DNA of 64,000 nucleotides from Eledone cirrhosa (Eukaryota): positions 24,738,001-24,802,000 of the forward strand of contig OZ024741.1 of NCBI GenBank assembly GCA_964016885.1, written 5' to 3'. How positions within the stretch are numbered: the stretch's first letter is position 1; every line of letters begins with the position of its first letter. A program made the position numbers and the translations under genes. Of this stretch, positions 54,601 through 60,600 are shown in pieces. The notes under the pieces are model-generated. The model was not told the DNA's origin and ran no database searches. It saw only the letters and a program-made list of their open reading frames with translations.

Positions 54601-57600
54601 ACAAAAAGATTTGGTACTGATTGGTTGATGAATCAATGGAAGTGTTTAGAGAATCAATTTATCCCTAAGTATCTAGAGCAGTCCTCGTGTGATATTGATA
54701 AAACAGTCAGGCCATTGATAAAAATATTGCTAGATTGGCTACTAGCAGAGTTTCCTGGTTTTACAATCATATATGAACATTTATCTTGGCCAAACTCCAT
54801 TCTTATATCTTTCAAGAATGTTGTAACCAGGACAAGGTTTTTCTTCATTCCATTTATGTCCTTGGCATAAAGTTAGCTATCACATCGTGTCTCATGGGGG
54901 GGGGGGGGGGGGGTAGTAGCGAGAAGACAACAATGTGGCTAACATCTTCGATATTTGTATTACAAAGACTACATTTAATGTTGACCCTCTTCTTTTGTGT
55001 AGCAGATATTTAGAAGGGATTTCTTGTTCCTGTATTGCATAGAGATATCCTTCAAACTGGGATGTCATAAACTTGTCAGAACTTCATGCCAGGCATTTTG
55101 AATGATTTATCCCCTCTATGGTTTCTGTTTTTCGTCTCAGGTACCCATGCACAACCTTCTCTGTAAATTGGTCCATTTTTTTTATTTTGTTCGAACATTG
55201 AATAGGATCTTCCAATTTTCTTGGGAGAGAGATTTATACCAGGCCTTATTCCATATCTCTCCTCCAGATCAGTGGTTATCCTAATGATATTATTTCCTTC
55301 ATGCTCATAGACTTGGGCAAGATGGTTGCTGATCTTTTTCTTCTGTTGACAATGTTGCTTCAATGTTACTATTCGGGACTCGCATGATGTTAATATGGAT
55401 TTTAGACCCCGGCCACCTTACTTGCGTGAGAAGTATAGCCTATCCACATCACCATTGATGTTAAAGTTTTCAGTAACCCTGAGAAGGTTGCGAGTTCTTA
55501 CATCCATCTCACTTAGTTCTTGCAATGACCAGTTCAGTTCTGGTTCTCTCCTTCTTTATGGGTCCTTCATATCTGACATTCTCATCCTGTCCAAGATATC
55601 TTTATTTGTCACCTGACTGTAGAGGCTGTATTGTCAAGCTGTTCATCTCTAGATTTCCAGAGGAGGGCACAACCCTTCCATGTTTTACTGTGAAATATAC
55701 AGGGTGTGGACAATATTTGTTCGCAATTTTCAACTGCTAATTTTATGCAAATTTTTTTACTTCCGTTGACACTCTTGTCTTCATAAAAACAGTGACTATA
55801 TTTCTATTATTTATTTTCAGAATAATTGATTATGAATAATTTTGAACCTCCAAATTTGTGGAAGAAACACAGAGTTCTTCTTGGAATCCGCGCCGGCAGG
55901 ACAAATAAGACCAGAAGATCAACTCCCAGAACAACAGGTGGCTCGCTGTCTCATCCAAAGACGTTCCCAGACTCATGCAGACAAAGTTTCCAGCGACAAC
56001 ATTGGTCCTAGGTGTCGTCAGCAGTCAAGGTGACCTCATGCCACCTCACTTCTTCCCTGAAGACCTCAAGCTGAACACTGATGGCTACATCCGCGTTCTG
56101 AGCAAGGTAGTAAAGCCCTGGATCGACCAGGTAGCTGCAGGTGTGGCAGCAAGACTCAGCGCCCTGCCATACCCGCCGAAAGTCCCAAGTCTGGCTGTCA
56201 GAGAACTTCGTCGACCACACTTCACTTGACATCTGGCCTCCCAGCTCGCCTGACTGCAACCCCCTCGACATCTTTGTGTGGGGCACAGTGGAATGAGACA
56301 CCAACAGATATAGCTGCAATACGAAAGACGATCTGAAGGCCAGGATCACAAATGTCTTTAGGGGCCTAAGTCGGGGACAGTGACGAAGGCCTGTAGCCGG
56401 TTCCGAGGCCGCCTTGAGGCCATCATCAAAGCCAATGGTGGGTTTATCGAATGAGATCAAAAGAACAAGTCATGAAGACAAACTGACTCAAGTTTGATAA
56501 ATATATCTTAAAAAATAAAACTACTGTGTTATTTTTTCCTAGACAGTAATCTTGCGAACAAATATCGTCCGCACCCTGTATAGCTGTATACATATATGTA
56601 AGGGTTTCAGTTTCAATATATAACGACTGATCACGTGTCTAACCAAATACAATTTTGATAAATAGATTTAAATAAAATCAATAAATATCAGAATTAATCT
56701 GAAATTAAATCTTTTTTAAAAAGAGTTCAATATTTTCTTCAAATGTATAAAATATGTTTTTCTTTCTCTCCACAGATATTAATTGTTGCGAAACATCTTT
56801 AAGGTATGTGTTCAATACTCAGGTACATTCTTGTTGTTGTTGTGGTGGTGGTGGTGATGATGATGGCGGTGATGGTGATGATGGTAGTGGGGATGGTGGT
56901 GGTGTACAACTTTCTTATAAGGTTATCAAACAAAGCATTAGATGAGAATGAGAGTGGTTTATATATATATATATATATATTTGCCTCCATCATGGATCAA
57001 CTAAGTGCTCTTGCCATAATAACACATTTTGAAACCCAGAAAAAAGAGAAAAAATAAAAGGAAAATAAAATTTTTTTCTTCCTAATAATCGTCTTTTTCT
57101 CCCTATTTTCATATATATATATATATATATATATATATATATATATAGAGAGAGAGAGAGAGAGAAGAGAAAAAAAAGGAAAGTCCCTTTCATTTCTCAT
57201 CTCATGTTTCAGACTCTCTTCCATTCTCTTCCTCTTTCCATTGCTCCTCTCAATATGTAGTTATATTTTAACCTGATTTTTGCTATAGTAATCAATTGTT
57301 TACAGCTACCCACTGTGGTGCTGAGATTTCTACAATTTTATGAAAAGGATACAATTTTAAAAAATTTTGTATGTTAGATTTTTTTACATTTTTCCATCTC
57401 TTTTACTTTTATATCTTCTATTTCCAGGAATAATCAGTCAACATGTTTCCCTATAATCCACAGCAGCCACTGTCACCTGGACAAATGTACTGGTCACCCC
57501 TATGTACATTACGGCATCCCTCAATCCTACCTGAAATATCGTTATCTTCCTTATCCTCCCATTCACAAAAATTACCTCTATCAAAAATCACACATCCACT

Positions 57601-60600
57601 CACATTTATCCCCACACTATACAGACCCCTACCCTTATAAACCCTCCTATTATCCAAATTATCCAGGCTATTATGAACCTGATTACCTTCAACAAAATAC
57701 AGATCCCTTCTATTCTGAGTCTCACTATATTCCTGACTATGAAAAACTTTACAGTTCCAATGATCAGTACTATACTCGCAATAAGAGATCTGCTTATTCT
57801 AAACCTCATCAACATTTCCACAACTTTGACAAATATCATTTTAATACTTATCCCATTAAGTCTTCATTGCCTGGAAAACTTCCTTACAATTCTATACCCT
57901 ATTCACTTCCACACTATATACACTCTTATGATTCTAACTCCTACTACCCTCAGACCTATCAATACCCTTATTCTTCTAAACCCAATTACCTTAAACACTA
58001 TAAATACCTCAATAAACTACCATGTATGCAGTCTTGTATAAATCTTGTCAGATCCACAAAGTCACAATTTACCAGCAACAGACGTAAGTAAACGTTTTGT
58101 ATCTTTAAACTTCTTCAATGAATTTAATTTGGTTTATTGATAAGTTTAACATATCACCTCATTTGACACCACCATTTGATCCTTAGGGGTCTTTTAGTTT
58201 GGTTTAGTGATAAGTTTAACATACCACCTCATTTGACACCACCATTTGATCCTTAGGGGTCTTTTAGTTTGGGTAGTAAGTTTAACATACCATCAAGGTT
58301 ATCTCTCCTAAGTAGTAAGTCTAACATACCACCATGGTTATCTCCCTTATTAGTAAGTTTAACATACCATCGGGACTACTTCCTGTGTTCCTTTCTTCAA
58401 TGCCATTATGTAGTAGGCTTAACACACATTAATAATACATAGTATTAATTATTGTTTAAAGATATTTAATACAGATGTGTGTGTGTGTGTGGGGAGGGGG
58501 GGGGGGGGGGGCTTATCCATTGTGTTATTGTAGTACCTTCCATATTGCTGGGATTAAAGTCTGTTCCAGAGTTCAACTTAGAGGATTCTTGTAGGTAAAG
58601 TGTGAGCCTAAGAGATGTGGAGAGGGTGAGGGTAAATTGTAGAATTGTTTTGTACAAGGTTTCGTACAGATGATAAACATAACAACACCACATGGTTTAA
58701 TATTAACAACTATTTGTTGGGTACTTTTAATTTGTATCATTGGTCTTACACACCTTGTATTGTTTTAGTTGGCTGATTGGCATAAAAAGTTCTTTTATAT
58801 TCTGAGTTCAAATCCCACCAAATTTAGCTTTGTCTTTCATCTTATCAGGGTAAAATAAATCAAGCACCAGTCACAAACTAGAGTTGATGTAATTGACTTT
58901 CCCCTCCCCACAAATTGTTGGCTAAATTAGAAACCATTATTAAGGGCAGTGGATTCACAATCAGTAGAACATCAGACATGCTTTGCAGCATATTGTTATG
59001 TCCCTTTACATTCTGAGTAAATATATAAATGTCCCAACATGCAGTTTTCTGTTATTGTTGCTGTTGTCTTTGACAGGAGAACAACTGAATGAAGTGACGT
59101 CATTCTTGGATGGTTCCTTTATATATGGTACAGAGAATTTGAGAGATCTTCAACTGGGAAAATATGGTAACAATTAGCAATTGGATCATTTCTTTACAAT
59201 AGCTTTGAGTATATATATATAGGTATATATGTGTGAGCATGTGTGTATATGTGTATATCAGTGACTTCTAGGCTGGTCTTTAGTTACTCTACAGAAAACA
59301 TGCGTAGACTGGACAGAAATGAAGCAACTATGCTTCATTGGATGTGCAATGTAAGTGTGAGATAAAGGCAGAGCTTGGATGAACTAAGGGAGAAGCTGGA
59401 TTTAAGAGGAATCAGAGGTGATGTGCAGGAGAGAAGACTGTGTTGGTATGGACATGTGATGCACATGGACAATGGCCAATGGGTGAAGAAATGCCAGGAA
59501 ATCCCAGTGGAAGGAAGCCACAATAGAGGAAGTCCAAGAAAGACCTGGGCAGAGCTGACCACAAATCACTGAGACTCAGAGAGGAGATAATGAAGGAATG
59601 TGACAAATGGAGAGATGCTGTGCTGAGAAGGATCTGTCCAACCCATGTAAGCATGGAAAACTGGACGTAAAAATGATGATGTAGACTCAGCTATCCACAT
59701 GGTTATCATGTTATGAGTTCAATCCCAATGTATGTCTTCAGTCTTATGAGTGAAATTGGACAGACAGTGACAGTACACCTGATAGATGTTTTGGGGGTGG
59801 GAGACTAACTCTGTTATCCTGTTTATTACCATCATCATAGTTTGATGTTTAGCAGGCTTCTAAGAGTCAGGTGCAAAATACTATGTCATATTTGTTCCTG
59901 TTATCTCTTCTCTGAGTTGGAATCCTACCAAGGTCAACTTTGTCTTTCATCTTTTTGACAACAATAAAGTACCAGTATATGGTGGGGATTAGTGAAATTG
60001 TTGGAGTATCAGATGAGATACCTTGCAGTATTTGTTACAGTTTTTTTACATTCTTAGTTTAAATCCTGCTGAAGTTCCACTTTTGTTGTAGCTTTAATCT
60101 GTTGCCTGGTTTAACACCACGGTGTGGCCATTTGTTGCCTTTAGTGAAATTCACTCTGTTGCCTGGTTTAACAGCACCACATGATATGATACCCAGTGTA
60201 TTACTGGTTAAACTGAAAACTACATAACATTTATTTAATTGTAGGACTTCTGAAGACATCTGAATGTTCAGGTTTACCATTTCCACCAATAAGTAATGAT
60301 ACAACCAGTCAGTGTAGCAAGAATTCTAAACCATTTCCTTGTCTCAAAACAGGTAAGTGGTACCATGTTCAGTTGTTCTAACAACTTCTAAGATGTTGTA
60401 CCATTCTTGTCTCAAAACAGGTAAGTGGTACCATGTTCAGTTGTTCTAACAACTTCTAAGATGTTGTACCATCCTTGCTCTCCATATTATTATGCCACTA
60501 TCTAGACATGAACATCCTTACTCTCTAAATAAGTATATTCTTCCCTTAATATGGCCAGTCTTACTCTCCAAGTGACAATGTTTCTCTCCATATTATAAGA

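Follow-up and report, generated by a model that had tools for sequence, protein, structure and literature searches.

Two head-to-head copies of a peroxidase-fold gene in Eledone cirrhosa differ by an in-frame 4,548-bp part of exon 6, very probably through loss of a histidine polymer from one copy

The window analysed here is a 64,000-nucleotide stretch of Eledone cirrhosa DNA (NCBI GenBank assembly GCA_964016885.1, contig OZ024741.1, positions 24,738,001 to 24,802,000 of the forward strand). It holds two head-to-head copies, A and B, of a gene with an animal haem-peroxidase fold, which lie within an inverted duplication of about 30 kb. Exon 6 of copy A encodes a giant histidine-rich polymer that is missing from copy B (Table 1). 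The two forms of the exon differ in length by 4,548 bp, i.e. by 1,516 codons, and no stop interrupts either spliced frame. The initial annotation had given the coordinates, sizes, ATC positions and reading frame of this difference exactly as we find them, and its count to "exon 6" is correct on the spliced gene model, in which intron 2 has to use a GC donor. The deletion is genuine at the level of the sequence, preserves the frame and is mechanistically ordinary, and it lies in an unusual gene.

All exons (ten in A, nine in B) splice in phase. Exon 10 of copy B would fall past the end of the window, and exons of copy A beyond the tenth were not found within the 64 kb. Exons 1, 2 and 5 contribute only 40, 25 and 28 coding bases, and the 25-bp exon 2 requires its GC splice donor in both copies (40390/40389 on the minus strand, 49073/49074 on the plus strand). 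The N-terminus is hydrophobic and, judged by eye, signal-peptide-like, and the encoded protein looks like a secreted one. Over the 1,531 bp of shared coding sequence the copies show four differences, two silent and two replacing a residue. The G>T change at 57573 is the sole substitution that separates them in exon 6; elsewhere, copy B has arginine where copy A has glutamine and the aligned relatives have histidine.

Table 1. Coordinates of the two gene copies, the exon 6 difference and the inverted duplication (positions within the 64,000-nucleotide window)
Feature	Position	Strand	Remarks
Copy A, exons 1-10	11506..40793	-	2,199 codons, stop-free
Copy A, exons 1-5	40793-40754, 40414-40390, 36333-36176, 35961-35782, 31224-31197	-	
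Copy A, exons 6-10	30529-25326, 24335-24246, 23167-23060, 16427-16182, 12025-11506	-	
Copy B, exons 1-9	48670..63421	+	510 codons, stop-free
Copy B, exons 1-5	48670-48709, 49049-49073, 53548-53705, 53923-54102, 56776-56803	+	
Copy B, exons 6-9	57428-58083, 59077-59166, 60245-60352, 63176-63421	+	
Exon 6 of copy A	25326..30529	-	5,204 bp, AG/GT ends, one open frame
Exon 6 of copy B	57428..58083	+	656 bp, in frame, AG/GT ends
Segment missing from copy B	25830..30377	-	4,548 bp, Tyr-rich lead-in, then polymer
Copy B junction, single kept ATC	57580..57582	+	3-bp overlap
G>T substitution	57573	+	Asp in A, Tyr in B; 7 bp upstream of junction
His/Ser-block-like remnant	57583..57612	+	about 10 residues, adjoins junction on the right
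RNKR site (presumed furin-type), retained	B 57777..57788 / A 25632-25621	+ / -	C-terminal of polymer
Distal motif, exon 4	A 35782..35961 / B 53923-54102	- / +	Q-A-I-S-N-D; family Q-F-l-D-H-D
Proximal motif, exon 10	11506..12025	-	R-F-G-Y; family R-F-G-H; partner Asn is Tyr
Arm A	14433..44010	-	29.6 kb pairable inside window
Unique spacer	44011..45452	.	1,442 bp
Arm B	45453..64000	+	18.5 kb inside window
Diverged stretch of copy B	55699..57579	+	three large heterologies, islands 4.8% and 2.1%; exon 5 and start of exon 6

The alternative frames of exon 6 in copy A hold 72 and 19 stops. The segment absent from copy B encodes 171 kDa of protein with 438 His (28.9%), 119 Tyr (7.8%), 15.4% Ser, about 9.5% each of Leu, Pro and Gly, and one Cys. 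It opens with 31 non-repetitive codons, followed by His/Ser blocks that alternate with runs of a consensus decapeptide (2, 9, 31, 2, 1, 16, 14 and 2 units). About seven higher-order modules are joined by two conserved linkers, and the composition grades smoothly into both flanks. The missing piece had been described as opening with non-repetitive, Tyr-rich sequence, which is right for the first 31 codons; from there on, degenerate decapeptides follow. The polymer has no Pfam match, its residues 52-900 received no Atlas score above 0.78, and a literature search returned no papers on the decapeptide core. A His polymer inside a peroxidase was likewise not found described in that literature, which was covered mostly as titles and the starts of abstracts and did not extend to subscription papers and preprint supplements. 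The polymer-bearing protein looks like an undescribed building material. Copy B still has a Tyr/Ser/Pro-rich loop insert of 193 residues in exon 6, together with RNKR, which we take to be a furin-type site by the R-X-K/R-R rule. The Tyr-rich segment and RNKR had both been reported as kept; RNKR is, and of the Tyr-rich sequence copy B has lost 62 residues, 15 of them Tyr, with which the missing piece begins. A single-sequence fold of exon 6 of copy B gave a predicted local distance difference test (pLDDT) score of 43 and no usable model, a weak sign of disorder.

At the junction, the ATC that stands twice in copy A (30377-30375 and 25829-25827) is present once in copy B, and the overlap is exactly 3 bp. 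The 504 coding bp 3' of the junction are identical in A and B, and both junction ends fall outside the repeat arrays, which makes repeat slippage and unequal crossing-over very improbable for the join. A homologous crossover between the lost and the kept Tyr-rich parts was rejected as well, their similarity being reached by 138 of 500 shuffles. The top local match between the breakpoint regions (13 of 15 bp) is located away from the junction, and no word longer than 11 bp is common to exon 6 of copy B and the lost piece (14 windows). A clean join, a 3-bp overlap and a nearby substitution, as in copy B, are also seen in deletions by non-homologous end joining (NHEJ) or by polymerase-theta/microhomology-mediated end joining (MMEJ), and end-joining overlaps typically measure 2-6 bp. 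The initial annotation had called the event microhomology-mediated. With this the 3-bp ATC is compatible, as MMEJ leaves one copy of an overlap of at least 2 bp, but the overlap does not rise above chance: for endpoints placed at random in exon 6 (four null models, 200,000 draws each), an overlap of at least 3 bp has P = 0.08-0.15, and a 3-mer is common to 2,733 of 74,800 in-frame endpoint pairs. Because a 3-bp overlap arises in 8-15% of random draws, the ATC is no proof of a microhomology pathway, and NHEJ and MMEJ are indistinguishable at an overlap that lies within chance.

That the junction is an artefact of assembly or reads, i.e. a collapsed repeat, is scarcely credible. It is true that repeat exons break assemblies and that P0001, a close relative described below, begins at exon 7. 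Moreover, an Octopus maya oviducal-gland transcript (see below) was named, according to the available text of PMC8976471, from a weak match to Aedes chorion peroxidase (E = 3.4e-9), such as a short fragment might give. A collapse, however, would leave at least one unit and would join inside the repeats, whereas at the join in copy B unique sequence has gone from both ends, the frame is intact and a private substitution lies next to it.

Our analysis indicates that copy B very probably lost the polymer by deletion, rather than copy A having expanded. From internal evidence loss in B is most likely, because the modules of copy A diverge far beyond the arms, because a His/Ser remnant adjoins the junction, and because copy B holds no decapeptide seed. 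In all 15 pairs, the His/Ser blocks within copy A differ by 2.2-21.9%, and by more than 11% in 13 of them; this module divergence exceeds even the most diverged arm-to-arm island (4.8%). The remnant is the top His/Ser-like window of exon 6 in copy B, and its score is reached by 5 of 5,000 same-place shuffles. The claim that no repeat unit is left in B is right for full units and passes over these ten residues. Neither a decapeptide seed nor a Tyr-rich lead-in from which the insert of copy A could grow was found in exon 6 of copy B. Also, an intronic gap of copy B interrupts a 127-codon frame that resembles a retroelement-like family (Atlas 0.96), and since this frame is open across the site in copy A, B is the deleter there, too.

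Several points weigh against this polarity. The His/Ser remnant is weak under a whole-exon null (53 of 1,000 shuffles reach its score anywhere). A decapeptide remnant left of the junction was considered and rejected, as 84, 162 and 107 of 200 shuffles reach its scores, which stay below the 95th percentile. An orthologous exon 6 was found neither in 43 candidates for the B form (proteins of 383-2,000 aa) nor in 113 candidates for residues 1515-1734 of the A form (proteins of 953-3,035 aa), and because no ortholog with exon 6 was found the polarity stands without an outgroup. These misses, from a protein library, do not demonstrate absence. The original reading of a deletion in B instead of an expansion in A is accordingly supported by evidence internal to the locus.

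The opposite scenario, in which the short form is ancestral and the polymer of copy A is younger than the duplication, having arisen by expansion or through capture of a repeat exon from another gene, is highly improbable. All other peroxidases examined have a short loop, and A modules only 2-4% apart point to partial recent expansion. Most modules, however, are 11-22% apart, far above the arms; copy B has no seed; the first 31 codons of the insert are non-repetitive; any target-site duplication is at most 3 bp long; and the composition grades into both flanks. What is not supported by our data is the claim of one exact 4,548-bp event. With two module pairs just 2.2% and 4.1% apart, copy A may have grown after the split, and copy B may have contracted before the last join. 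Only this last join is visible in the sequence, not the size of the original deletion or the number of steps.

The arms around the gene copies fit a palindrome (arms more than 99% identical, short spacer), as the divergence is 0-0.41% in six of nine aligned blocks and the spacer measures 1,442 bp. Higher divergence is found in two short islands on the left side of the junction (4.8% and 2.1%) and in one repeat-element block (3.2%). The arms also fit real DNA, because they differ by 71 transitions and 32 transversions, the window contains no N and no gap, and a B-only element has intact inverted ends. Under a rival explanation, A and B would be two alleles placed head to head by the assembly, and the short exon a deletion polymorphism. 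Most of the arms are indeed just 0.2-0.4% apart, with many indel differences, and the available text of the squid genome paper gives a heterozygosity of about 1.2% and warns of spurious redundancy (PMC9068888). We nevertheless regard this as unlikely: no gap interrupts the window, a unique spacer of 1,442 bp separates the arms, and seven substitutions in the first 42 bp, with a repeat running from arm B into the spacer, have the look of a rearrangement junction. These seven substitutions lie beside the spacer (43969-44010 and 45453-45494), inside a repeat that is presumably of the short interspersed nuclear element (SINE) type. The repeat continues from arm B into the spacer, with a poorer continuation on the side of arm A, and its signal comes from one of seven reference stretches. 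The fold-back may have formed via inverted repeat copies at the spacer edge.

Six segments are found in copy A only (714, 2,066, 396, 4,548, 4,258 and 1,118 bp; 13,100 bp in total) and four in copy B only (432, 888, 347 and 354 bp; 2,021 bp in total). The exon 6 gap is the largest of the six A-only segments and the sole coding one; the other five are intronic. One may read this as decay of a duplicate, with the loss in exon 6 as one more neutral deletion, in frame by chance, and no distinct role for copy B. The five intronic segments agree with such decay, as do the 1-in-3 chance of an in-frame outcome and the arginine that copy B alone has in place of glutamine. It is opposed by nine exons of copy B without stop, frameshift or broken splice site despite four large heterologies within 2 kb around exons 5-6, a weak argument in copies so close. 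We consider decay a possibility, tentatively held and on the unlikely side. Because only four coding differences fall in 1,531 bp, the open frame of B says nothing on selection and fits a working polymer-free form as well as a fading duplicate.

No gene-bearing part of copy B is more diverged than the 1.9 kb to the left of the junction (4.8%, 2.1% and a swapped intron 5), and rightward of the last substitution the next 2,093 bp are substitution-free. This pattern could mean that the short form of exon 6 originated earlier, in a third copy or an old haplotype, and that recombination or gene conversion then carried it into copy B within a patch at about 55.7-57.6 kb. Such a course of events is distinctly unlikely, since the same pattern results if short islands between large gaps escape homogenisation, the exon 6 part of the island has one substitution in 155 bp, and no third copy lies inside the window. 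With the Penelope-like block (see below) left out, 35 of 66 substitutions lie at most 150 bp from a block edge (0 of 10,000 permutations). Without the two islands and the spacer edge it is 7 of 38 (2,000 of 10,000 permutations), and a general rise of divergence near gaps was rejected as unsupported. Gene conversion between the arms is suggested as possible.

Within the diverged stretch, copy B carries an 888-bp element of its own (55699-56586) with near-perfect inverted ends of about 30 bp and TA flanks, in place of 2,066 other bases of copy A; a remnant frame in it presumably resembles a mariner/Tc1 transposase, judging by motif. Intron 5 shows a swap rather than a plain indel, with unrelated sequence in B (56937-57283, 347 bp) and A (31063-30668, 396 bp). 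At one and the same (TA)n site, both arms hold an element (61048-62621, plus strand; 20000-16974, minus strand) which we take to be Penelope-like and for which no Pfam match was found. The two elements are 3.2% apart; that of copy B has a short 5' end and a 3' end longer by 354 bp and is flanked by the repeat (TA)n(GA)nCAGTTCTCTC, and they may be two independent insertions at one hotspot. Two similar short-repeat tails flank the 1,118-bp A-only segment (15842-14725); here, in contrast to the exon 6 join, a deletion mediated by repeats is suggested for copy B.

The gene that hosts the polymer has an animal haem-peroxidase fold in which the haem-binding and catalytic His are replaced. Five of the eight exons tested match PF03098, exons 3, 9 and 10 above the curated cut-off and exons 4 and 7 below it (E about 2-5e-5), while exon 8 and both forms of exon 6 gave no PF03098 match. 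Exon 4 alone found no match in PDB. Using a profile of 30 full-domain homologues out of 153 stored proteins, the spliced halves flanking the insert scored E = 1.2e-25 and 3.9e-84 (search of three sequences). They align to the adjacent profile positions 88-205 and 217-540, and for this reason the insert lies in one loop. The loop, between the CFPI and CINLVRS cysteines, has grown to 1,709 residues (copy A) and 193 residues (copy B), compared with 12-20 residues in 25 of 28 loops of other peroxidases, the three long ones being overshoots of the pattern.

In both copies the distal His is Asn, where 70 of 71 motifs elsewhere have His; in copy A, the proximal His, present in 129 of 129 motifs elsewhere, and its partner Asn are both Tyr. 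Asp and Glu, which we take to be the residues forming the haem ester links, are Ser and Asn; according to motif tallies, several active invertebrate peroxidases are also without one ester-link residue. Retained in the alignment are Gln and Arg, presumably of the distal site, and an Asp and the T-x-F-x-D-x-S loop (TSFLDGS), which we take to bind calcium. Hence, domain order and motifs over exons 3-10 are those of the animal haem peroxidases (PF03098; lactoperoxidase, myeloperoxidase, insect chorion peroxidase), but the catalytic residues and the length of the loop are not, and the host protein is probably a pseudo-peroxidase. P0001 was the single close relative among the 310 matches of a full-library search (218 of 321 residues identical over exons 7-10). 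It is without exons 1-6, and it matches lactoperoxidase with E = 3.5e-60. P0001 retains the proximal His, but its partner Asn is replaced by Phe and the ester Glu by Asn; decay of the haem site may have been stepwise in the lineage of P0001 and the window gene. With exon 10 as query, three of 284 proteins of 302-2,000 aa were found, all of them distant (two molluscan, one crustacean).

A link to a tissue comes from the O. maya transcript mentioned above (TRINITY_DN16362_c4_g6_i1), an oviducal-gland "chorion peroxidase" for which the available text of PMC8976471 gives quantitative PCR primers with a 116-bp product. In the spliced gene, 15 of the 20 bases of each primer are matched; each primer has one unique best site, and these sites lie exactly 116 bp apart, across exons 3/4. 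The joint primer score is 30 versus 22 for the next best, a value of 30 is reached by 0 of 5,000 codon shuffles, and the reverse-primer motif is absent from all 45 segments of other peroxidases. It would thus appear that a close relative, be it an ortholog or a paralog, is an oviducal-gland gene. As described in the available parts of PMC8976471, expression of the transcript peaks in the oviducal gland when eggs are fertilised and laid and declines in senescence; the cement by which the eggs are strung together is a product of this gland. The study treats the chorion peroxidase as an active enzyme, and the word "histidine" is absent from its main text and five supplements. Because both primers map at the published 116-bp spacing, a role in egg cement or egg coat is suggested. 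Two facts count against such a role for the polymer gene: the link rests on 40 bases at 75% identity and could point to a paralog, and there is no sign that the O. maya gene has the polymer.

We hold it to be reasonably likely that the locus is explained by an ancestral polymer gene, an inverted duplication, a loss in copy B and a function as structural carrier. In this scenario the ancestral gene would already have had the His polymer, and the inverted duplication would have produced the two head-to-head copies. The last join of the deletion in B would have been made by end-joining repair between two non-repeat positions, with a 3-bp overlap and a nearby base change, and the frame would have been kept either as a 1-in-3 chance outcome or since a frameshift would have cost most of the fold. 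Whether copy A makes a structural protein, not an enzyme, we judge to be evenly balanced; it would be a dead-peroxidase carrier whose acid-soluble polymer sets at seawater pH, likeliest in the oviducal gland. The dead peroxidase would then be a secreted, disulfide-pinned carrier of a 171-kDa block copolymer of His/Ser and His/Gly/Pro/Tyr parts. The polymer would be soluble in the acidic secretory granule and, in analogy to squid beak proteins and mussel PreCols, would set at seawater pH by His deprotonation and His-metal binding, and Tyr or quinone cross-links in it could be made by another oxidase. Copy B would be the same carrier with the Tyr-rich loop and RNKR, without the polymer. Myeloperoxidase has disulfides at the base of the loop, and because of such disulfides the polymer should stay tethered to the core by its N-terminal side if RNKR were cut.

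His-driven, pH-triggered setting is described, in the available text of PMC11931252, for squid beak proteins. Of these, HBP-1 to 3 resemble the polymer in being secreted cephalopod proteins with His/Gly/Tyr-rich repeats, which are likely disordered, and the high His content of such repetitive proteins is matched by the polymer with 28.9%. In contrast, the HBPs are stand-alone proteins of 15-18 kDa with GHGXY pentapeptides (PMC11931252), and the polymer is a 171-kDa insert, ten times their size, inside a peroxidase fold. GHGxY has no match in the 1,516 polymer residues; unlike the HBPs, the polymer has as its unit a Pro-rich decapeptide, with which His/Ser blocks alternate. HBPs occur in squids and, according to the available text of the squid genome paper, were not found in O. 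bimaculoides (PMC9068888). A likeness to the polymer is also seen in the mussel PreCols, His-rich structural block copolymers with His-metal cross-links, and in the Nereis jaw protein NVJP-1 with 27% His, both of which differ from it in their repeats and have no peroxidase host described in the available text of PMC9999432. With regard to the duplication, gene palindromes with arm conversion on the primate X and Y and the willow W have, as far as the available text on them goes, inverted arms more than 99% identical and a short spacer, like the window, and they carry, also like it, a gene possibly tied to reproduction. In contrast to those palindromes, large indels between the arms in the window add up to about 15 kb in 30 kb.

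The deletion itself is a common type of event; what makes it interesting is the gene that hosts it and the existence of a pair with and without the polymer. Here, the same carrier occurs naturally in both states with only two other residues differing in 510, which makes the role of the polymer directly testable. Short-read assemblies would miss a giant His polymer hidden under the gene label "peroxidase", and no octopus egg-cement protein is named in the papers found by our literature search. If the explanation is true, octopods would have a His-based material of their own, and what has been taken as a marker for an active chorion-hardening enzyme could turn out to represent a structural protein. 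It is conceivable, though rather unlikely in this full form, that an octopod turned a haem peroxidase into a non-enzymatic carrier of a His copolymer for egg cement, unrelated to the squid beak proteins, and that the palindrome supplies two selected subunits, with and without polymer, whose ratio tunes setting or stiffness.

Further repeats were recorded around the gene. A 22-bp satellite lies 3' of exon 10 at 1-8650 (371 copies) and 10700-11351 (28 copies), and between its arrays, at 8664-10115, there is a reverse-transcriptase frame of 483 codons (PF00078 and PHD). Pfam identified two of eight repeat-element frames. A 48-bp intronic tandem array is present in both copies, with 15.6 units in A (39210-39959) and 24.6 units in B (49504-50685); it forms an open Cys/Thr-rich frame on the gene strand, outside the gene model.

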